The position numbers were made by a program, and so were the translations under genes. DNA of 64,000 bases, from NCBI GenBank assembly GCA_965208325.1, contig OZ242326.1:4064001-4128000 (forward strand). Direction: 5' to 3'. Source of the DNA: Candidatus Poribacteria bacterium (lineage in GTDB: Bacteria; Poribacteria; WGA-4E; PCPOR2b). The notes beneath the pieces were generated by a model, which saw nothing but the letters and a program-made list of their open reading frames with translations, was not told the DNA's origin and ran no database searches. Each line of letters begins with the position of its first letter. Within the stretch, counting starts at the first letter, position 1. Shown one piece after another: positions 2,611 to 12,647 of this stretch.

Positions 2611-5600
2611 CTACGGGATGATAGAATCGAGCCGAAGCATAACCCGCATTGTTGTGCCCTTACCGATTCCCTCACTCAACGGGTAGATTTTCCCGCCGGA
2701 GCCAACAACAAAGTTCGCGGTCGAGTGAAGCCCTAATCCGCTTCCTGACGCCTTAGTCGTGTAACCTGCCGCAAATATCGTTTTAAATTTGGTATTTTCA
2801 ATGCCGACGCCGTTATCAGTCACGTCAATGCAGAGATGGTTTTCCTTTAAGTAGGCTTTTACTTCAATGCGAGGCGGCTGTGCGATGCCGCCGGAATTTC
2901 CAAGTTCATCAATTGCTTCAACAGAATTCTTGATTAGATTGACTATCATCTGATGAAATTGGCTTTCTTGAATTCGAATTTCTTGAGGCGCCTTCTGGCA
3001 GTCTATATCGAGCTGAATCCCTCTTTTGTCTAATGAGTCTTGTAGTAACTTAACTCCATCATTGATGATTTTCTTTAAGTCAACATCCTTTCGGACGGCG
3101 CTAGTGTCGCTAAACGATTTTTGCGTACGCACAATATCGACAATGTGTGTTGCCCTGTTGTTAACCCGTTCAACCGTATTTATCAGGTCTTCATTCTGTT
3201 TTGTAAAATCTTCGGCGAGCGCTAACACAAAGGGCAACACCTTCTGTCCTTGTGGATTATGTTTGATGTAATCAATCCAATCATCCTGATTCGCCCTAAT
3301 AGCGTCCGCAAGGGCGTTGAATCGGTGTATCAACCGATTCTCGGTTAAACGGCTATTTAGCGTACCAATACCTGTCACGACACTGTTGATGGCGTTACCG
3401 ATATTGTGGAGAATAGTATCCACAATTTCCAGACGACCTTGCGAAAAGGCTTGCGCCAACGCTTCCTCGGCGAAGATTTTATCCGAAACATCGCGGAAGA
3501 CGACCACGCCTCCTTTTCGATTTCCGTTTCGGTCGCGCAGAGGCCTGCCGCTGACACTGATATATAACCCGTCCGGCAATTTAGGGTTGCGCACGAACAT
3601 CTCAATGCTGTCAGTTCCCTCACCGCGTATTGCTTTAACGAGCGGGAGTTCTTCAGGTGGAAACGGTGTTTCTCTGTCGGGAAAGAAAAGTCCGTATTGG
3701 TCCGACCATTCATCGGGTTCCGTATCGGTTGCGCCTTGCCCGACTATTCGTTCCGCGCTTGGGTTGAATATGGTGAAATGGCCATTTTCATCGGCGACGA
3801 CGACACCATCGCTGATACTATCAAATATGGACTGCATGAGTTGGCGTTGGTGTTCAAGTTGATTAATTGAGTCTTTGAGTTGCTGTTCTGTTCTCTTGAT
3901 TCTTGTGATATCGCGGGCAATCGCAACCCCGCCTTCAATTTCCCCCGACTCGTTAAGCAATGGATTTGCGCTGATACTGACATGCACCCCATCTGGCAAC
4001 ATCTGGTTTCGCACAACCATTTCAACCTCAGTTACTTCCTCTCCCCGCAGTGCGCGGGCGATCGGAAGCTCGTCAAAAGGAAAGATGGTTTTGTTATCGG
4101 GAAGGAACAATCCGTATTTCTCGGGCGCTCGGGTAAGATTTTCCAATTTGCGCCCGACCATTCCTTCAACAGTACGGTTAAACATTACGTATTGCCCTTT
4201 ATCATTAGCCACGATGAGGCCATCACCAATACTGTTGAAAATAGTATTCAACAAGAGGGTTTGACTTTGCAGTTCCTCAACTGTTTTCGCTAGGCGATTT
4301 TCTACCGACTTCAACTTGGTGATATTTCGCAACACACTTACGCCTCCACGCAAGGCACCGTTTTCATCAAACAGCGGGCGGCCAGTGACTCGTATATGAG
4401 CTCCATCGGGCCGCTCCGAGTTCCGCAAGAAAAGATCTACATCGGTTGAGTCTTTCCCTTGCATTGCGAGAACGAGGGGCAGTTCATTTGATGGATACGG
4501 TGTCACCGTATCCGGATAGAAAACGCCGTACAGTTCACTCCACTTTTCGGGTGTTGCCGCAATAGCGCCCAAACCCGTGATTTGCTCTGCCATCGGATTA
4601 ACAAATAGGAATTTACCCATCTTGTCGGTTACAATGATTCCTTCGCTGAGGCTGTTGAATACTGTGTCCATGAGTTGCGCCTGCTCCTGATACTTCTGCA
4701 TCATTTGTTGTAATTCAGTCATCGCCATTTTGTCCGATGTAATGTCGCGTATGACTGCGATGGCGCCCGTAACTTCGGTGCTGTCATTACCATGAAGCGG
4801 GTAAGCCTTTGCGCGGAGGTAAGTTTTGCCCCGCTTTTTATCATTCTGCAGAAAGAACTCCATCTCCTCAGATTCTTCGCCGTTAAGGGCACGGACGAGA
4901 AGGTTTTCATGCGTGGGAACTTCGGTCTCTTCGTCTATATGAAACAATCCGTACTTTTGAGCCCACTCTTCGGGCGGTGCGTCTTCCACTTTCACGCCGC
5001 TCATTCGCTGCAAACTGGGATTGGCAAGTAAGATTCTGGCAGAGGAATCCATCACCACTACACCATCGCTGATACTATCAAAGGCAGTTTCCATGAGTCG
5101 AGTCTGCTGTTTGAGTTCCTGAATGGTAAATTCCAATCTAGCTTCAGTTGCTTTGAGTTGTGTTATGTCGCTGAAAACTGCGACGCCGCCGCTTAAATTT
5201 CCCCGTTCGTCAAAAAGGGGCCTACCGTTGACGTTAAGAACATAGGTCTTGTTTTCACGCCGCACTTGCATCAGGGCGTTGTCTGTCGACTCGCCGCGTA
5301 ACGCACGCACCAGCGGCAATTCATCCGCGGTATACATAGTTTCCCCATCAAGATGATACACCTGATATATCTCTGACCATTCATTTAACTCGGCGAGTAC
5401 AGGAAAAGAACCTGTGACTTGCTCCGTCGGAGCATTATAGAGCAAATTATTGCCGTCAAAATCCATTGCTATCACGCCGTCCGCTATTGTGCTAACGATG
5501 GTTTCCATGATTTTGGTCTGATTTTCGAGTTTGCTGATTGTTTCCCTCAATTCGTTTTCGATGTCCTTGAGTTGTGTGACATCGTGCGTAACTACCACGC

Positions 5601-6369
5601 CTCCTTTCAATTCTCCGTTAATGTCGTAAAGGGGCCGCCCGCTGACATTGATACGAACCCCTTCCGGCCGCTTTTCATTGCGCACGTACATCTCGATATT
5701 GTCCGTCATCTCACCGCGAATGGCACGTACTAGCGGCAATTCCTCCTCCTTAAAGAGAGTTTCACCATCAGCGTGGAAGAGACCGTAAGTTTCACTTCTC
5801 TCGGCAAAGGGAATGCTTGGCATGCCAGGGCCGTTCAACTCTTCAGCGGTCGGATTAAACATGAAGTAATCCCCATTTACATTCGACGCGATAACTCCGT
5901 CGCTGATATTATCAAAAATTACCTTCATGAATCCGACGCGTTCTTCCAACCGCTGAATTGTCGATTTTAGCTCCGTCTCTTTCTCGGCAAGTTGTTGAAG
6001 TTTCCGATGACGACGCAAGCTTTTTTCGATGCTCAAACGCAACTGGTTTGTATCATGGGGCTGGAAGACGCACTCAAACTGAAATGCGTCGGATAACTGC
6101 TCAATCAATTCTTCGGTCAATTCCCCAATTAGCCATACGACTGGGATTTTAAACCGACTATTTATCTTCTTTATGAGCTGAATGTCAGGTTTTTGTAGTT
6201 CCACGTTGATTATGGCTATGTCGGGAGAGATTTCTTCCACCTTTCCTTCGGCTTGTGCATCGGAGGCAACCGAGGCACATACCGAATATCCAGCTTTTTT
6301 GAGTCGTCCCGCTAAGTCTTGAGCAACGAAGGGGATGTGTTCAACAATCAGGACTTTTGCGCTTGCCAT
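2611..6369 (-). CDS. Hybrid sensor histidine kinase (degenerate receiver + 6 PAS + HisKA + HATPase)
   Basis: Six F(D/N)S(I/L)xDG(V/I)IV..ELPLxRA(L/I)RGE-type repeats; LHNIGNAINS; NLIKNS, DVTDNGVGI, GSGLGL boxes; AGGAG RBS. Confidence 0.93.
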   Translation of the reverse strand: MASAKVLIVEHIPFVAQDLAGRLKKAGYSVCASVASDAQAEGKVEEISPDIAIINVELQKPDIQLIKKINSRFKIPVVWLIGELTEELIEQLSDAFQFECVFQPHDTNQLRLSIEKSLRRHRKLQQLAEKETELKSTIQRLEERVGFMKVIFDNISDGVIASNVNGDYFMFNPTAEELNGPGMPSIPFAERSETYGLFHADGETLFKEEELPLVRAIRGEMTDNIEMYVRNEKRPEGVRINVSGRPLYDINGELKGGVVVTHDVTQLKDIENELRETISKLENQTKIMETIVSTIADGVIAMDFDGNNLLYNAPTEQVTGSFPVLAELNEWSEIYQVYHLDGETMYTADELPLVRALRGESTDNALMQVRRENKTYVLNVNGRPLFDERGNLSGGVAVFSDITQLKATEARLEFTIQELKQQTRLMETAFDSISDGVVVMDSSARILLANPSLQRMSGVKVEDAPPEEWAQKYGLFHIDEETEVPTHENLLVRALNGEESEEMEFFLQNDKKRGKTYLRAKAYPLHGNDSTEVTGAIAVIRDITSDKMAMTELQQMMQKYQEQAQLMDTVFNSLSEGIIVTDKMGKFLFVNPMAEQITGLGAIAATPEKWSELYGVFYPDTVTPYPSNELPLVLAMQGKDSTDVDLFLRNSERPDGAHIRVTGRPLFDENGALRGGVSVLRNITKLKSVENRLAKTVEELQSQTLLLNTIFNSIGDGLIVANDKGQYVMFNRTVEGMVGRKLENLTRAPEKYGLFLPDNKTIFPFDELPIARALRGEEVTEVEMVVRNQMLPDGVHVSISANPLLNESGEIEGGVAIARDITRIKRTEQQLKDSINQLEHQRQLMQSIFDSISDGVVVADENGHFTIFNPSAERIVGQGATDTEPDEWSDQYGLFFPDRETPFPPEELPLVKAIRGEGTDSIEMFVRNPKLPDGLYISVSGRPLRDRNGNRKGGVVVFRDVSDKIFAEEALAQAFSQGRLEIVDTILHNIGNAINSVVTGIGTLNSRLTENRLIHRFNALADAIRANQDDWIDYIKHNPQGQKVLPFVLALAEDFTKQNEDLINTVERVNNRATHIVDIVRTQKSFSDTSAVRKDVDLKKIINDGVKLLQDSLDKRGIQLDIDCQKAPQEIRIQESQFHQMIVNLIKNSVEAIDELGNSGGIAQPPRIEVKAYLKENHLCIDVTDNGVGIENTKFKTIFAAGYTTKASGSGLGLHSTANFVVGSGGKIYPLSEGIGKGTTMRVMLRLDSIIP

Positions 6370-6580
6370 TTAATTCTCCTGTAACGGTTTAGTTCAAGGA
6401 ATTGGTCTATCTAGCTGCGGGGCTGTCGAGTTTGGCCCATGAAGGCGGCGAAATGGAAGTGATTTTGTGCTTCTACGTTAATGTATAAATCAAGCCGCAT
6501 AACCATGACCGCCCGGCTTGCGGATGGAAACGGAAAGCTATCATCCGAACATCTGCAGCCAAGTTCAATACTCAATATAC

Positions 6581-6595
6581 GCAATTTATATGCCA
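6581..6595 (-). promoter_or_regulatory. Sigma-54 (-24/-12) promoter upstream of the PAS kinase pair
   Basis: Minus strand TGGCATATAAATTGC (GG-N10-GC), about 210 bp before the 6369 start; identical 15-mer at 39338-39352. Confidence 0.7.
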
Positions 6596-6805
6596 GTCCG
6601 AGCGGATTAGGCCTAATTTCATTCAACCAAATTCAGACAGATTGAGATAATCTAGACTCATGCCTACAAGAGAATTTTTCACACCACTGAGTGAAAAGGC
6701 TAATTCGGCGATTCTGGAAGGTGTTAACAATCTTGGTAGGCGCAATGGCTTTCTTCAAGAATGTCAGCCATCTGCCTTTGATTGCTATGTCGTTGGGTCA
6801 TACAT

Positions 6806-9475
6806 CTAGCCCGAATTGGGGCATAGCTCCATAATAGACATATGCTTTTTGGCGGGATCAAACCGCTCTAGGCTGGTAAAAGTTGTCACGGCGTTCGGGT
6901 AAAGTCTCTCTGCCATTGCCCGAAGTAGACGAGCATTTATCCAATCCACGGCAGACCCCTCATACTTGGCTGGCCCCTTGAATCCGCTTCGATAAAGCGG
7001 ACGCCCAGTTTTTTTGGACTGGCGCGGTGGAACATGGTGATAGTCCGAAATCTCTGTTACTAGTAGGTCGATAATCTCCAGTACGCCTTGTGGGTGAAGC
7101 AGTTCAAGCATCTGTAATGCACCCTCAATCGCGCGATTGGAAAGGTGTATCCATACATTATGCGGGTACTCAGCCAAAATTTCGTGCAGAACATTCCCTT
7201 GATCGGGAATTTCCGGTGTTTCAATGAAGCGAAGGTCGGCCAAAGCAGGGATGGCAACGTAGCGTTCCTCTAACTTGAAACCATTCCAGAGGTCCAACCA
7301 GAAATGATAGAATTGACGGCCGCCTTCCTCCGCACCAAGCTTATTCCTAAAATCCGACTGATAGTGAGTCAGAAACTCCTTCACTTCCGCATCAGGCGTT
7401 GAAAGTTGCCGGAGATCCGCTTCCAAACTTTGGCTATTGAGATTATACTTTTCCGCTAATTTCTTTAATATTTCTGCCGGCAGATAGAGGCGAGCATGAA
7501 TGAGATAGTGATGTCCGTCTATCTGTGCGACTTTATCCGTCGGAACGTTATCTGTGACGTTTGTCGAATGTATTCGCACAATGCGGCCCGCGAAGGGACT
7601 CAGTGCCTGCAAGGGAGCTTCAGCGTGTAGGGGCAGATACGTGAGTGGTATCTCGTTTCGCGCCGTTCCTAATTCGGCCTGTGCTTCTGACAGCACGGAA
7701 TCTGAAAAATCAGCCATAAGGTACGTCATCTGTTTCAACAGACTCTCAATTCCTTTCGAACGGGCGAGTTCAACCAACATGTCAATGAAGATGCGGGCGC
7801 GTTCGACGCTTGCAATACCAATCTCGACGTAGACGTACTCATCACCGGTATCGCCGATTGCTTGAAGTTGATTCAAGAATTTCTCAGCGGTGTAACGAGT
7901 CAACGCTTCATTCATATCCGGCGACCCGTGCACGGCGTCTCGATAGTCCCGATTATGCGCCGCCATGAAGGGAGTTTTATGCTGCCAGAACGCGTCATTG
8001 AATTTCCAGACGTGACTCTTAGTATAGGGAACATAATCGCCAATCACGACACCGTTGGCGCACTCCGTCTCTCCGCGTACGACCTGTTCCAACATCCTTG
8101 GAATTGACGTTGCTAATTCTTGTGTCGACGCGTGCTGCCGCAGATCGACCGCCAGTTCCCAATCTTTTGAGACGGAACTCTCCTCCGCCCCGTTCTTCAC
8201 AAAGGGTCGAAATGCGATGGGAGCTCGGAAATGGTGCTTATAAGCAATACGGTTCCAGTAAGTTCTAAAACGGGCGGGCCGCCATTTGGGCGGCAATTCG
8301 CCTAACGAATTTTTCAAGGCTTCCAAAGCATTGCGAAATTCCTCGACGTACCCTAGGTCAACGAGCCCAGGTTCGTGAACGACCGTAACACCCAGGTCTT
8401 GCAAACGGGGAATGAGTTGTTCAAGGTCTTCGCGAGCCCGATCCGCTGGCGCCAATTTCGCTGCCGCAAGAATCTTTTCAATGTCGCGGGAAGCCTGAAT
8501 TGGCATGAGATGTATCCCCGCGACGCCGGGAAGTTGACAAATTTTCTTTATGAGTTCGACAGTCCAATTCGAACGGAATGCGCGGAAAGCTTCTTTGCCG
8601 GCGGCTTCCGCTTCCTTGAATTGTTCGAGGAGTGCATGCGCCTCCGGATTTCGTTGGCTAATGCCGACCAGCAAGAACCAAAAGCGAAGCGCCTTTACAG
8701 AGGCGATTACTGGCAGTCCCACGACGATTGGAATCCGTTGCGCTAAACCGCGTTCAAAAACTAGATGCTGCCATTTTGAAAAAACGTCCCAGAGCAGGGG
8801 CGGCTGAGTTAGTATCGCTTCGGCGCCAGCGTCTAGTTTCTGCTGTAAGCGATCCACGCGCGCGATCACGGATTTGCCTGCAAAAGGGTTTTCCACCGCC
8901 CAAATCGACACATCGGACGGTAGTGTGCCGGCGCTGCGCATACCGTTGAGGAGCGAGAGTATCCTGAACGAGTTCATTGGTAGTAACCGAGACGCGCCGG
9001 GGATTTTTCGTATTGGGTGACCGCCCGACACGACTAGAACGCCCTTTGCTCCGTTACCGATTGCGCGGTTAACTCGATCTATCACTGTTTTACGCGTTCG
9101 GGCATTGGCAGCAATCGTGAAGATAGGTTCCGGCGTGTCTCCCAGCACTTCCAGATTATCCATTTTCCCAGTAAAGCGGGGAAAATCCACGACGGTAACC
9201 GCGTCGACCCATCCCTTCCGCACTAGGCGCTGATATCGCTTGAACTGCTTTTGGAAGTTTGGGTCCTCGAATTCTCTCGGCGTTTGAAGTTCCACCGTAA
9301 TTACGAACTGTCCTTCTTTGAAGCGGCGTGCTGCTGGAAGCGCCGTAACGTCAAGCGTCTCCGTTGAACAATTTTCACCATCGGCAGAGGGTGAATTCAT
9401 GTCAGTCTGCACAGATTGTTCTTCCTTATATTCCAAATAATCTAGTGAACTTGGCGTCACGCGCAATTCACTCAA
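6806..9475 (-). CDS. Methylenetetrahydrofolate reductase (MetF)-like domain fused to a class I SAM-methyltransferase-like domain
   Basis: N-half ITVELQTP, VDAVTVVD, QKLDAGAEAILTQP, IPIVVGLP, GVAGIHLMP match MetF-family motifs; C-half YVEIGIAS, YLMADFS, HSTNVTDNVPTD resemble a Rossmann MTase. Confidence 0.7.
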   Translation of the reverse strand: MSELRVTPSSLDYLEYKEEQSVQTDMNSPSADGENCSTETLDVTALPAARRFKEGQFVITVELQTPREFEDPNFQKQFKRYQRLVRKGWVDAVTVVDFPRFTGKMDNLEVLGDTPEPIFTIAANARTRKTVIDRVNRAIGNGAKGVLVVSGGHPIRKIPGASRLLPMNSFRILSLLNGMRSAGTLPSDVSIWAVENPFAGKSVIARVDRLQQKLDAGAEAILTQPPLLWDVFSKWQHLVFERGLAQRIPIVVGLPVIASVKALRFWFLLVGISQRNPEAHALLEQFKEAEAAGKEAFRAFRSNWTVELIKKICQLPGVAGIHLMPIQASRDIEKILAAAKLAPADRAREDLEQLIPRLQDLGVTVVHEPGLVDLGYVEEFRNALEALKNSLGELPPKWRPARFRTYWNRIAYKHHFRAPIAFRPFVKNGAEESSVSKDWELAVDLRQHASTQELATSIPRMLEQVVRGETECANGVVIGDYVPYTKSHVWKFNDAFWQHKTPFMAAHNRDYRDAVHGSPDMNEALTRYTAEKFLNQLQAIGDTGDEYVYVEIGIASVERARIFIDMLVELARSKGIESLLKQMTYLMADFSDSVLSEAQAELGTARNEIPLTYLPLHAEAPLQALSPFAGRIVRIHSTNVTDNVPTDKVAQIDGHHYLIHARLYLPAEILKKLAEKYNLNSQSLEADLRQLSTPDAEVKEFLTHYQSDFRNKLGAEEGGRQFYHFWLDLWNGFKLEERYVAIPALADLRFIETPEIPDQGNVLHEILAEYPHNVWIHLSNRAIEGALQMLELLHPQGVLEIIDLLVTEISDYHHVPPRQSKKTGRPLYRSGFKGPAKYEGSAVDWINARLLRAMAERLYPNAVTTFTSLERFDPAKKHMSIMELCPNSG

Positions 9476-11066
9476 ACGTCCGGTAATTTAAAAATGTCTT
9501 TCCGTTTGCTTCGATTTTTACGTCTGAAAGGGTTTCTGTTCTCAGATGTATCCCGTCATCGTCTAAAAAGTAGAGTGTTACGTTATGCGATCCCGCAGGA
9601 AGTGACATTCGCACGAGAGATATCTGATTTGGAAGTGTCTCCCAAGAGCGGGTGTCTGCCCGCTCTGTAGCGACGTTGAATAAATTCACGAGGTTACCAA
9701 GTAAATCCCCTTTCTTGTCCGCGCGGCGAAAAGCCAAGTATTTCAAAATTGCGCGCACGACGGTTCGGATCAGAATCGTATTCTGCTCGGACGCGAATGT
9801 GGCGAGAGCGGCGCCTTCAACATCTTCGACTAGGACACTGTTCGCCTGGATGTACGATGCGCGCGGTTCGGGATTTGGGATTTCCGAATGTTGGCTATCT
9901 GCATCAATCCTATCACGGTGAGTAGGATCTGACAAAGATTCAAATTCTAAATTGACCTGCACCAATCGAGGGCGATTCGATGTGTAGACCGGAATTGCTA
10001 CTCGCAACAGATATTCGAGTTCTACTTTCTCGTAACGGAGGTTTCTACGCCGCGAGACTGTGTCCGCGAATTCCCAGAGTTCGTCTTCGTTTTCTTCGCG
10101 CCTCTTTTTTCCGCTGACGATTGGGTCAGTTTTTAAGATTGGGAAATAGAGGTTTTCCGTAGTTTTGTGCGGGACAAAGCCACTTTCGTAGATGAAGATG
10201 AGTTCACCAAAACCGGGCGGAGACGGAAGCGATTCTCCATATAGTTCTGTGTAACGATTCAAATCTTCAACGAATCCCAAAAGGCGTGCGAGCCGAACGA
10301 GTGCATGTCCGATGTCGTCTGGCGGTGAAACGCCAAGCTGTGCTGCGTAACGCTGATACCCTGCCTCCGCCCATTGATAGGCAATATATGCGTTGTTCCA
10401 GTCCTCGACCCATTCATAGAAGATTCCCGAGAGATAAGCGACGAATGCTGCACCGGCAAAATTGTAGGTTTCGTCTTCATCGGAGTAGTATTGGAGAAGT
10501 TGGCCCGCACGCCGACATTCGACCAAGGCATCGTCCGGAAGATTCAGATAGGCGTAGTTAAGGGCGCGGTAGTAGTGAATAAGCATCCTTTCGTAACGTG
10601 TACCTGGATACGGACGAATAGTATCTGAGGTCAGAAGGGATGCAATCTCCTTGGAGATACTTTTCGTGTAAAGATCTTCGGCGATAATCTCGGCGCGTTC
10701 AAATTCCTGATTGCTTTCCTCAAAGCGATTTGCATAGTGGGCAATGAGACCTCGTTCGAAAAGGTAGGGGAGGTTTCTTTTTTTCGAATCCTCTTTATCA
10801 AGATGTGTTAATGCGGTTTCAAATTCTCCTCGTTCAATTGCGAGGCGCACTTCGTGCATGCTGTAACCGCCGCATCCGATGAGGATTGGCAGAATAAGTG
10901 AAAAGCCCACTCTCCATATGGCAAATTGTCCGCAAAAGTGTATTGCCAACAGACGAAAGAGAGATGGCCTATTTTGGCGGGGATTATCCGGCGATTGCAG
11001 CGATGGAAGCAAAATACGGGTTCGTCGGCGTGAAGGAACTGTGTGGGGAAAAAATTGCGTCGGCAT
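9468..11066 (-). CDS. COG3014-like TPR lipoprotein (LpoB-associated); true start may be further downstream
   Basis: Lipobox-like LIGC; YPGTRYERMLIHYYRALNY and ERADTRSWETLP motifs; adjacent to the lpoB-like gene. Confidence 0.75.
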   Translation of the reverse strand: MPTQFFPHTVPSRRRTRILLPSLQSPDNPRQNRPSLFRLLAIHFCGQFAIWRVGFSLILPILIGCGGYSMHEVRLAIERGEFETALTHLDKEDSKKRNLPYLFERGLIAHYANRFEESNQEFERAEIIAEDLYTKSISKEIASLLTSDTIRPYPGTRYERMLIHYYRALNYAYLNLPDDALVECRRAGQLLQYYSDEDETYNFAGAAFVAYLSGIFYEWVEDWNNAYIAYQWAEAGYQRYAAQLGVSPPDDIGHALVRLARLLGFVEDLNRYTELYGESLPSPPGFGELIFIYESGFVPHKTTENLYFPILKTDPIVSGKKRREENEDELWEFADTVSRRRNLRYEKVELEYLLRVAIPVYTSNRPRLVQVNLEFESLSDPTHRDRIDADSQHSEIPNPEPRASYIQANSVLVEDVEGAALATFASEQNTILIRTVVRAILKYLAFRRADKKGDLLGNLVNLFNVATERADTRSWETLPNQISLVRMSLPAGSHNVTLYFLDDDGIHLRTETLSDVKIEANGKTFLNYRTFE

Positions 11067-11069
11067 GCA

Positions 11070-11690
11070 CTAGAAGACAGCCTTCTTACGTTCGATAAGT
11101 TTCTTAATTTTCTTTTGCCCCAACCAAACCTTCTCATTTGATTCAATGTCTGTGAGGATTAAATCCACTTGGTAATAGGTGACCTGGGTACCACCTTCGC
11201 GATCTTGAATGGTGTTGATTTCGCCAGTCATCATATAGTCTGCGCCGTGTTCGCGCCGCATTCTCTTGATAGTTTCAGCACGTGCGAACTCACTCTGATC
11301 TTCTTTTTCCGCGCGAAGTTCCCCTCTTTCTTCTGCACTGGCGACGACGGTAACTCGGCCTGAATTGATGAAGGCACGTTCGATATCGTTCACAAATGTG
11401 TTAATTGCGATGTGTTCCATGCTCATATTACGAATCGCTCCAACAATGACGATGGGCTTCACGGCCTTGGATTGCGTCATGTGATTCGTGATCCACGGGT
11501 GATTTAGACAGTCCAAAATCATCGCCTCGGATACCTGACGAGAGTCCGTGTCGTTCCACCGTCCGGAAAGATCAACGGTGGTGTCTGTCTCAATGCGTTC
11601 TACAGTTTTATGGGCACTGCATCCAATAAACATGATTATTACAACAAGGAAATTAACCGTGTACAAATGATGTTTCGCTATGTTTTTCAT
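11070..11690 (-). CDS. lpoB: Penicillin-binding protein activator LpoB family lipoprotein
   Basis: Lipobox FIGC; DLSGRWNDTDSR, GADYMMTGEI, YYQVDLILTDIESNEKVW motifs. Confidence 0.8.
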   Translation of the reverse strand: MKNIAKHHLYTVNFLVVIIMFIGCSAHKTVERIETDTTVDLSGRWNDTDSRQVSEAMILDCLNHPWITNHMTQSKAVKPIVIVGAIRNMSMEHIAINTFVNDIERAFINSGRVTVVASAEERGELRAEKEDQSEFARAETIKRMRREHGADYMMTGEINTIQDREGGTQVTYYQVDLILTDIESNEKVWLGQKKIKKLIERKKAVF

Positions 11691-11783: not shown

Positions 11784-12647
11784 CTATTGGCGGATGAACT
11801 TCTGTAACCGTCCCTCTACCGCTACCTCGCCGACGTAAAGATCGCCATGGGAATCCATCCAAATGCCGTGCGGCGCGCCAAGGAATTCACCGGGAACCCG
11901 GCTTTTTTTCGCACCGCCCCAGTTAGTAATCTGTTTGCCGTCAAGTGTGTAGATACTAACTTGGCCTTCTGCTTCGGCAAGGTAAACGACATCGTCATTT
12001 GGGTCAAAATATACGGTGTCAGGGCGCCTCAAATCTGTCCACTCTGACAGGAAATGCCCGTCAGTATCGAAGATTTGGATTCGATTGTTCTCTCGGTCAC
12101 AAATCCAAACACGGTCGTGCTTGTCTATCCGCACACAATGGGATAGTTGGAACTGCCCTGGTCCGCTTCCCGATTCGCCCCAAGACATTAACAGGTCTCC
12201 GTCAGGCGAATACTTATGGACTCGTGAATTACCGTAGCCATCCGAAACGAACAGCTCGCCGGTTGAAGCAATTGCCAAATCCGTCGGAAGATTAAACGGG
12301 TCGCCATCCTTGGGTGCTGGTTGGCCGGGCACGCCGAGCGTCATCAACAGTTCTCCATCAGAATTAAGCTTACGTACGCAATGCGTGTTACGCTCGGTAC
12401 AGTAAACGTTGTCCTGGGCGTCAATGTATATACCGTGTGCATCCTCCAAGATGTCGTCACCCCACGACGCCAGGAAGTTTCCTTCGCGGTCAAAGATAAC
12501 TAACGGGTGTTCGCTGCGCGAGTAAACATAAACGCGATCCTGCGAATCACATGCGACCGCCGGAATCCAGCCCCATGTCCAACCTTCTGGCAACGTCCCC
12601 CAACCCTCTGCAACTTTGTATGTATAATCGCCTGAACCGAATGTCAT
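11784..12647 (-). CDS. NHL-repeat beta-propeller (peptidyl-alpha-hydroxyglycine alpha-amidating lyase family)
   Basis: FNLPTDLA, VSDGYGNSRVHK, GPGQF, DRENNRIQIF repeats. Confidence 0.88.
   Translation of the reverse strand: MTFGSGDYTYKVAEGWGTLPEGWTWGWIPAVACDSQDRVYVYSRSEHPLVIFDREGNFLASWGDDILEDAHGIYIDAQDNVYCTERNTHCVRKLNSDGELLMTLGVPGQPAPKDGDPFNLPTDLAIASTGELFVSDGYGNSRVHKYSPDGDLLMSWGESGSGPGQFQLSHCVRIDKHDRVWICDRENNRIQIFDTDGHFLSEWTDLRRPDTVYFDPNDDVVYLAEAEGQVSIYTLDGKQITNWGGAKKSRVPGEFLGAPHGIWMDSHGDLYVGEVAVEGRLQKFIRQ

Follow-up and report, generated by a model that had tools for sequence, protein, structure and literature searches.

What can a methylenetetrahydrofolate reductase (MTHFR) still do when it is joined to a methyltransferase-like domain and signature residues are missing from both? 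The question is raised by a gene in a 64,000-nucleotide stretch of Candidatus Poribacteria DNA (assembly GCA_965208325.1, contig OZ242326.1, positions 4,064,001 to 4,128,000), hereafter the window. At window positions 6806-9475 the minus strand holds a single open frame of 889 codons, with TTG first and the stop at 6806-6808, while the plus strand of the same interval is closed by many stops. The first-pass annotation, which gave no strand, had described an MTHFR-like enzyme of 889 amino acids (aa) fused to a Rossmann S-adenosylmethionine (SAM)-methyltransferase-like domain, and had quoted three strings as degenerate motifs. All three are present in the translation: FTIAA at residues 119-123, GGHP within SGGHP at 150-154 and VEIGIAS at 550-556, counting throughout from the TTG of the 889-codon frame. 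We find that the N half is a divergent MTHFR barrel, that the C half resembles MidA/COG1565 methyltransferases in its predicted fold, and that the pterin-binding Asp of the one and the SAM-loop glycines of the other have been lost together, in fusions with the MTHFR domain first and only there. The parts of the protein used in the argument are the following.

6806..9475, minus strand: whole open frame, 889 codons from TTG; homologues of 848-894 aa span 94-99%
8444..9316, minus strand: MTHFR-like TIM-barrel half, residues 54-344 (Pfam, NCBIfam, alignment with MetFs)
9290..9292, minus strand: Glu62, equivalent of Escherichia coli MetF Glu28 by alignment; conserved, invariant in 25 fused relatives
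9014..9028, minus strand: S150-G-G-H-P154, aligned in place of MetF (T/R)-G-D, with Gly152 at the place of Asp120
8804..8806, minus strand: Gln224, equivalent of MetF Gln183 by alignment; conserved, with a clade-specific PPLLW next to it
8051..8443, minus strand: linker and conserved N-terminal subdomain of the C half, residues 345-475, with the motifs YWNRI.Y..HFR and WELA.DLRQ, also in stand-alone relatives
6809..8050, minus strand: predicted class I methyltransferase-fold core, MidA/COG1565-like, residues ~476-889 (model, fold search, profiles)
7805..7828, minus strand: degenerate motif I V-E-I-G-I-A-S-V, residues 550-557; stand-alone relatives read E-[IL]-G-V-G-x-G

The MTHFR character of the N half, as first proposed, holds. 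PF02219 (MTHFR) is the only Pfam family on it: residues 116-338 match profile positions 72-285 of 287 at 45.2 bits (cut-off 24), and the genome-wide search gives 47.3 bits. The NCBIfam MetF equivalogs stay far under their cut-offs (TIGR00676, 31.6 versus 293.7; TIGR00677, 30.2 versus 310; NF006396, 42.4 versus 453), and a 12-sequence profile of the N half gives weak MTHFR matches in the PDB (best E 0.008). Taken together, these scores place the N half within the MTHFR family as a very divergent member. We aligned it with E. coli MetF (K-12 record) and further MetFs. The catalytic essentials of the E. coli enzyme, according to excerpts of PMC11868366, are Glu28, Asp120, Gln183 and Phe223, and their equivalents in the fusion are Glu, Gly, Gln and Trp. 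Excerpts of a comparison of three classes of methylene-pterin reductase describe the Glu as the catalytic acid in all three, Gln183 as a ligand of pterin N1/N8, and Asp120 as binding pterin N3 and the exocyclic amine in bidentate fashion; the Asp120 position is acidic in all three classes, and E. coli MetF D120N keeps 0.3% of kcat with Km raised >40-fold (PMC11094777). The Trp at the Phe223 position (W266) is invariant in 16 homologues, so that an aromatic residue is kept, and Lys172 and the DAGA motif of MetF are also conserved. The equivalent of Thr59, a residue which we take to touch the flavin of MetF, is Val in the Poribacteria protein and Pro in the fusions of other phyla. Judged by alignment, the loss of Asp120 is a serious departure from the MTHFR family.

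The C half (residues 345-889) has no Pfam match: PF02636 (Methyltransf_28) is absent even at E <=10 and the best family, TcdB_N, reaches E 0.2. Its profile against PDB sequences gives E 0.75 or worse, NCBIfam finds nothing on the one stand-alone relative searched, and PADLOC finds no match on 5 proteins. Structure prediction was more informative. An AlphaFold model built from 12 sequences (mean predicted local distance difference test score, pLDDT, 78.5; predicted template modelling score, pTM, 0.77) was compared with the PDB; Foldseek places COG1565/MidA chains (4g67, 5zu0, 5ztz, 4f3n, 1zkd) at ranks 1-6, with E from 5.6e-6 to 2e-4. In structural alignment by VIA, MidA (5zu0_A) gives Z 16.4 and a root-mean-square deviation of 3.5 over 287 aligned residues, and 1zkd_B gives Z 15.3 over 271. 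MidA-type chains align over 271-293 residues (the COG1565 chain 4g67 over 280, at Z 13.6), whereas the other class I methyltransferases listed by VIA, at Z 13.4-14.9, align over 172-255. The match spans model residues ~130 (128-133) to 545, and the first ~130 residues have no structural match. On this model the C half has a class I methyltransferase fold most similar to that of MidA/COG1565, a more precise form of the Rossmann methyltransferase call of the first-pass annotation. Identity to the MidA chains is 9-12%, too low for membership of the family to tell much about the substrate. Across 1.84 billion representatives, the C-half profile finds 284 proteins at E <=0.001, 116 at 1e-10 and 43 at 1e-30; the PF02636 cut-off is passed by 7 of the 32 relatives scanned. 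In the ESM Atlas the C half lies at 0.97 beside clusters named 'SAM-dependent methyltransferase', with PF02636 on 15-18% of their members. The SAM motif I (E-x-G-x-G-x-G) is not kept, reading E-I-G-I-A-S-V, while the motif II Asp is. The C half is conserved as strongly as the N half and carries many invariant polar and aromatic residues.

Are the degenerate motifs peculiar to this one gene? We read the motif columns with our own hidden Markov model (HMM) alignments in 37 stored proteins matching both domains and in the genes of the loci described below. Among MTHFR-first fusions, the Asp120 position is Gly in 29 of the 31 that are readable, with Asp in P0026 and P0029 only, and GxGxG occurs in 0/32, the second Gly being kept in P0020 and P0023 only (GAGSP). 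Fusions of the reverse order keep Asp120 in 4/4 and GPG[ST]G in three of the four, the other reading APGSG. Stand-alone MidA-like genes have GxGxG in 74/76 and the motif II Asp in 75/76; the MTHFRs next to them have both Asp120 and Thr59 in 37/37; and both sites are canonical in 34 of the 36 stand-alone loci readable for both genes. All three forms retain the motif II Asp and DNxPxD, apart from a few variants in the more distant fusions. Loss of the pterin-binding Asp thus goes together with loss of the SAM-loop glycines, in MTHFR-first fusions only; the degenerate motifs seen by the first-pass annotation are a property of the clade, not noise.

The representatives show the MidA-like domain in four forms: after MTHFR, before MTHFR, beside a cytidine deaminase domain, and alone, in proteins of ~480-570 aa. 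The reverse-order fusions are four proteins, P0090, P0137 and P0143 (644-647 aa) and P0132 (1145 aa). In P0042 (1343 aa) the domain lies beside the cytidine deaminase domain and the MTHFR-like stretch is short. Of the 32 proteins scanned, none joins the MidA-like domain to MetE or to the SAM synthetase MetK, and its fusions to MTHFR occur in both orders. Fusion in both orders suggests that the MidA-like protein and MTHFR act physically together. Larger MTHFR-first proteins also exist: P0022 (1390 aa), P0024 (2863 aa), P0068 (2746 aa), and P0026 and P0029, in which MTHFR is accompanied by DUF5981. P0024 adds AceK kinase/phosphatase and HMGL-like domains, P0068 adds HATPase_c, and the N-terminus of P0022 looks P-loop-like when read by eye. 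The domain content of these giant relatives hints at regulatory or other roles of the domain pair.

The stand-alone genes give the domain a metabolic setting. A metagenome scan seeded with four stand-alone MidA-like relatives returned 600 stretches, of which 573 were confirmed as encoding stand-alone relatives; we kept 80 loci, many of them on soil contigs. Genes were called by our own script (a filter on GC content at third codon positions, then greedy choice of the longest open reading frames (ORFs)) and clustered, a procedure by which some genes may be missed. In 51 of the 61 loci with >=900 nt of room, the MidA-like gene is immediately followed by a same-strand gene of ~350 aa; the examples given to Pfam match Meth_synt_2 alone (~154 bits), that is, a single-barrel 'core' MetE. 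An MTHFR-like gene is present in 23 of the 31 loci with room on both sides. By Pfam on examples it is of two types, either a downstream MetF-MetV fusion (MTHFR and DUF5981, ~514 aa) or a plain MetF whose gene directly precedes the MidA-like one, sometimes with a separate DUF5981 gene ahead of metF. MetK comes next in some loci, and its cluster is found in 6/80. A sigma-54 activator with a GAF domain is encoded in 17/80 soil loci, divergently and upstream of the cassette of MidA-like, core MetE and MetF-MetV genes (for example L036:4050-5621); its position makes it a candidate dedicated regulator of the cassette.

The gene order metF, then MidA-like, is also the order of the domains in the fusion. 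An HMM of the fused N half scores 64-97 bits on 12 MetFs encoded directly upstream of MidA-like genes, which are the closest relatives of the N half and have GRFVVTAE, GWVDA, AVENPFA and PGVAG.H in common with it. The cassettes place the ancestral pair of metF and MidA-like genes in the methionine/SAM methyl cycle. From these observations we infer that MidA-like proteins take part in methionine/SAM-cycle modules in association with MTHFR, and that the fusion of the sponge symbionts is a derived, fused form of a metF and MidA-like gene pair.

The fusion itself is widespread and intact. The first-pass annotation had called for a search for the same architecture in other genomes, and among species-representative genomes we find it at 12 loci with the frame intact in all: three named Poribacteria, six Latescibacterota/Latescibacteria, two Gemmatimonadaceae and one named only 'bacterium'. 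The forms of the two other phyla are 45-50% identical to that of Poribacteria, and the mean column identity across phyla is 68-69%. A word-indexed search gave 16 homologous clusters, 14 of full length (848-894 aa) and 2 shorter with out-of-frame tails. Contigs from sequence runs of other studies cross the domain junction: those of run X6 span the whole stretch with 41 differences in 3301 nt and no gaps, and those of run X7, from a third study, cover 6500 to 9445 with 94 differences, both indels lying downstream of the stop. A contig of run X1 is identical to the window stretch and is possibly its source. The runs that contain the stretch are labelled sponge metagenome, and no RNA run is listed among them. 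The ratio of nonsynonymous to synonymous substitution rates (dN/dS) against three congeners is 0.14-0.18 for the N half and 0.16-0.20 for the C half; both halves are under purifying selection.

What else does the cell have for this chemistry? The window's own genome is one contig of 4.71 Mb, 95.6% complete. The fusion is its sole match to PF02219 and to TIGR00676, and the separate canonical metF for which the first-pass annotation had proposed to look was not found there. It is likewise the sole PF02219 match in three sampled congeners, save for a 163-aa relic in G043. Among Poribacteria it occurs in 4 of the 61 genomes sampled, all of one genus, while an MTHFR-family match is present in 41/41 genomes sampled from the order; the other genera have a 625-aa YitJ-like protein (S-methyl_trans and MTHFR) or a 534-aa MetF-MetV fusion. 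One congener retains a degraded YitJ-like gene (L020, G001:C1:4699500-4703000, ~1215-2037) with residues 10-114 and 465-625 of 625, and no trace of a YitJ-like gene was found in the window's own genome. The fusion appears to have replaced an older YitJ-type enzyme in the genus. In another Poribacteria genus (G026, L104:2340-3791) the gene after a YitJ-like one encodes a DUF6785 membrane protein (526 bits).

The same genome encodes one core MetE of 342 aa, ~190 kb from the fusion and 37% identical over its full length to a cassette core MetE. The His-x-Cys and Asp-Cys-Gly motifs, which are presumably its zinc ligands, are invariant in the core MetE alignment. Neither the MetH activation domain PF02965 nor a separate Meth_synt_1 partner was found in this genome. 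Its one PF02574 gene is a separate ORF for a 292-aa homocysteine S-methyltransferase, located in the cluster at G000:C1:584521-589820 (L106), where a RACo-type corrinoid activator (637 aa) is followed by a pterin-binding methyltransferase (345 aa), an Ldh_2 protein and, two genes downstream of the pterin-binding methyltransferase, this 292-aa gene. The cluster may be a candidate split, corrinoid-dependent methyl-transfer or methionine-synthase system. With a core MetE, a homocysteine S-methyltransferase and the RACo/pterin-binding methyltransferase genes, methyl-folate chemistry is to be expected in the cell. The Wood-Ljungdahl route was considered as the reason for an MTHFR and rejected, as this genome, at 95.6% completeness, has no CdhC match.

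Our preferred reading, which we hold tentatively and as somewhat short of probable, is that the fusion still acts at the methylene-/methyl-tetrahydrofolate (THF) step, with the MidA-like half as an accessory domain and not as a SAM methyltransferase. As the sole MTHFR-family protein of the genus, the fusion would then work through a non-canonical site, and the MidA-like half would be a built-in ligand sensor or a partner-docking domain, directed for example towards the single core MetE of the cell. In the fused clade the signatures of both sites have been rebuilt (Asp120 to Gly, Thr59 lost, GxGxG to G-x-A-S-V), with Glu28 and Gln183 kept, along with an aromatic residue at 223, the motif II Asp and DNxPxD. 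Several observations weigh against this. With Gly at the Asp120 position and Thr59 gone, ordinary reduction of methylene-THF is doubtful. All three Latescibacterota genomes examined hold a second MTHFR-family gene besides the fusion, in G004 a canonical 296-aa MetF (294 bits) and in G003 and G005 636-aa frames (~80 bits). Core MetE, found beside the stand-alone MidA-like gene in 51/61 loci, is found in 0/12 fused-clade loci with flanks up to 10 kb on each side. Core-MetE-like genes are present in 41/41 genomes of the order, most without a MidA-like relative, and because they are universal there, their co-occurrence with the fusion is uninformative.

A wider proposal takes in the soil cassettes, and we regard it as possible and somewhat less secure than our preferred reading. 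MidA-like proteins would be the missing partner in a fifth kind of methionine synthase, in which methyl-THF from the co-encoded MetF(V) supplies the methyl group to the single-barrel MetE, with the MidA-like protein linking the two enzymes as an adaptor or a SAM-gated switch. The fusion of the sponge symbionts would be a derived version, without the canonical flavin/pterin and SAM contacts, that replaced the YitJ-type enzyme in one genus of Poribacteria.

Alternatively, the rebuilt barrel and the methyltransferase-fold pocket may run a different reaction outside methionine synthesis, as a neofunctionalised enzyme with a new substrate. This could be a methyl or methylene transfer, linked to folate or flavin, whose acceptor is a compound bound in the MidA-like half, possibly as an adaptation shared by sponge symbionts. 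Such an enzyme would account for the alteration of both sites together in MTHFR-first fusions only, for the disappearance of the ancestral neighbourhood (core MetE at none of the 12 loci) and for the other MTHFR genes that co-exist with it in Latescibacterota; strong purifying selection on both halves, the sponge metagenome labels of the runs, and a patchy spread that takes in one Poribacteria genus and yet leaves 45-50% identity in two other phyla also agree with it. However, neither a candidate substrate nor a conserved neighbour that would indicate one was found, MTHFR's catalytic Glu and its pterin-binding Gln have stayed invariant, and the genus has no other MTHFR. We therefore consider a new substrate rather unlikely.

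Could the MidA-like half, or the stand-alone protein, instead sense SAM or S-adenosylhomocysteine and switch MTHFR off or on in response, as an analogue of the eukaryotic regulatory domain with a different fold? The stand-alone relatives do keep the canonical loop and the motif II Asp, their genes sit with metF, core metE and sometimes metK, and the domain is joined to MTHFR, in both orders, and to MetE or MetK in none of the 32 proteins scanned. MTHFR is moreover the committed step into the methyl cycle, according to excerpts of PMC9900621. In the fused clade, however, the loop glycines are gone along with the reductase Asp. The two halves are equally conserved, and the C half has many invariant polar and aromatic residues, a pattern that suggests an active or binding site more than a simple sensor; no fold likeness to the eukaryotic MTHFR regulatory domain appears among the matches. 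The convergently SAM-regulated MTHFR suggested by the first-pass annotation is thus conceivable for the wider family and fits the fused clade poorly; on balance we judge a SAM/SAH-sensing role unlikely.

Still less likely, and in our view improbable, is that the MidA-like protein is a protein methyltransferase that methylates MTHFR or core MetE from SAM and so ties their activity to the SAM level. MidA is the closest structural family. MidA/NDUFAF7 methylates an arginine in one subunit of complex I, and NDUFAF7 is described as a protein arginine methylase in excerpts of PMC3829151. A canonical SAM site is also present in the stand-alone and reverse-order forms. Against this stand the degenerate SAM loop of the fusion and its low identity to the MidA chains. 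A decaying gene, an annotation artefact or an assembly chimera, as the degenerate catalytic signatures in both halves and the uncertain start codon might suggest, is scarcely credible given dN/dS of 0.14-0.20, a frame intact in 12 genomes, contigs of three runs (one possibly the source) that bridge the whole gene, and the mean column identity across phyla.

The start codon and the surroundings of the gene call for some comment, and the features concerned are listed here.

9410..9412, minus strand: likely start codon GTG, codon 22 (sequence, homologue starts, strain contigs)
9400-9398, minus strand: alternative start ATG (sequence)
9421..9425, minus strand: putative ribosome-binding-site-like GGAAG, 8 nt ahead of GTG 9412 (read from the sequence)
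9468..11066, minus strand: upstream 532-aa ORF with a weak TPR match; a neighbour in congeneric L001 and L003, and not a conserved partner elsewhere

Several homologues start at the position of GTG 9412 or further in, and this codon is likely the true start, which would give a protein of ~868 aa. With that start, the 8-nt overlap of the annotated frame with the upstream 532-aa ORF is probably not real. Contigs of runs X7 and X8 cease to match the window just upstream of 9435-9445 and continue with other sequence; the region ahead of the fusion gene is differently arranged in those strains. Further upstream lie an LpoB-like lipoprotein (11070-11690, minus strand) and an NHL-repeat protein with a ScyF-like match (11784-12647, minus strand), and the congeneric loci L001 and L003 share the order NHL, LpoB-like, 532-552-aa ORF, fusion. 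Directly downstream, 1-2454 and 2611-6369 (minus strand) encode two large hybrid sensors (>818 aa and 1252 aa), each with a receiver, several PAS domains and a histidine-kinase ATPase. No conserved neighbour of the fusion was found beyond the genus among the 12 fused-clade loci. A PhyH dioxygenase was considered as a partner; it is the sole neighbour met twice outside the genus, adjoining the fusion in one Latescibacterota locus (L007:12599-13405) and one Gemmatimonadaceae locus (L010:14208-14996), and we judged this a coincidence.

Both domain families are known, and in the literature searched we found no description of the association of MTHFR with MidA-like proteins, of the core-MetE cassette or of the loss of Asp120 in step with that of the SAM loop. 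No paper was found on a fusion of MTHFR with Methyltransf_28 or another methyltransferase, nor, among the papers listed on core methionine synthases since 2021, on a MidA-like partner; two public records name the fusion merely 'methylenetetrahydrofolate reductase'. Of the outcomes that the first-pass annotation had named as fatal to its proposal (a C half lacking a methyltransferase fold, an assembly chimera, an architecture already catalogued), we encountered none. The plain reductase annotation may be wrong, and this affects metabolic reconstructions of sponge symbionts. The fused clade is also a natural experiment, in which the pterin Asp and the SAM loop were lost together and the halves are still selected. 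MidA-like proteins would form a second, unrelated family of core MetE partners, common in soil metagenomes, without a name in Pfam or NCBIfam, and linked by gene order to MTHFR and core MetE and by fusion to MTHFR; they would bear on how single-barrel core MetE enzymes acquire the methyl group. If this is true, it would be the first metabolic context for MidA-type proteins in bacteria.

How does the fusion compare with known systems? It resembles MetF/MTHFR (PF02219), especially the MetF that accompanies MetV (DUF5981), in its TIM-barrel match and in Glu28, Gln183, Lys172 and DAGA. It differs in having Gly for Asp120, Val or Pro for Thr59 and Trp for Phe223, in its 545-residue C-terminal extension and in lacking a MetV domain. 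The C half resembles MidA/NDUFAF7/COG1565 (PF02636; 5zu0, 5ztz, 1zkd, 4g67, 4f3n) in its predicted fold and in the motif II Asp, and its D-N-x-P motif lies, as we assume, at the place of the MidA D-A-L-P motif. Unlike MidA, to which it is only 9-12% identical, it has no PF02636 match and no GxGxG, while it has an extra N-terminal subdomain of 130 residues and the conserved C-terminal motifs LLHP.G and F.GP.K.DGS.V.W.N; its family is tied genomically to MTHFR and core MetE, not to complex I. With eukaryotic MTHFR (6fcx, 8uy1/8uy2) the fusion has the layout in common, an MTHFR barrel followed by a large C-terminal domain that possibly binds an adenosyl ligand. However, sequence matches to 8uy2, 8uy1 and 6fcx reach the barrel only (query residues 206-343). 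The C half matches class I methyltransferases, whereas the eukaryotic regulatory domain has, as we understand it, a distinct fold of its own; no MTHFR chain is in the fold lists, which does not exclude that family. The YitJ-like homocysteine S-methyltransferase/MTHFR of other Poribacteria (NF006396, 625 aa) is likewise an MTHFR fused to a methyl-cycle partner. Its partner domain is PF02574 and N-terminal, whereas the fusion has no PF02574 and scores 42 bits against the cut-off of 453.

For the cassette, the closest parallels are MesD/MesX and split MetE. Price, Deutschbauer and Arkin (2021) distinguish four core methionine-synthase families and split MetE; in excerpts of that paper MesD needs its partner MesX by genetics, the partner of split MetE is assigned by adjacency, and MesD is independent of MetF (PMC7857596). 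In its main text the term 'COG1565' is absent, and the passages seen on 'methyltransferase' concern no such partner. As in MesD/MesX and split MetE, the single-barrel MetE of the cassette adjoins a conserved partner gene. This partner, however, has a predicted MidA-like methyltransferase fold and is neither DUF1852 nor Meth_synt_1, and the MTHFR gene within the cassette, unlike in the case of MesD, points to methyl-THF as the source of the methyl group.

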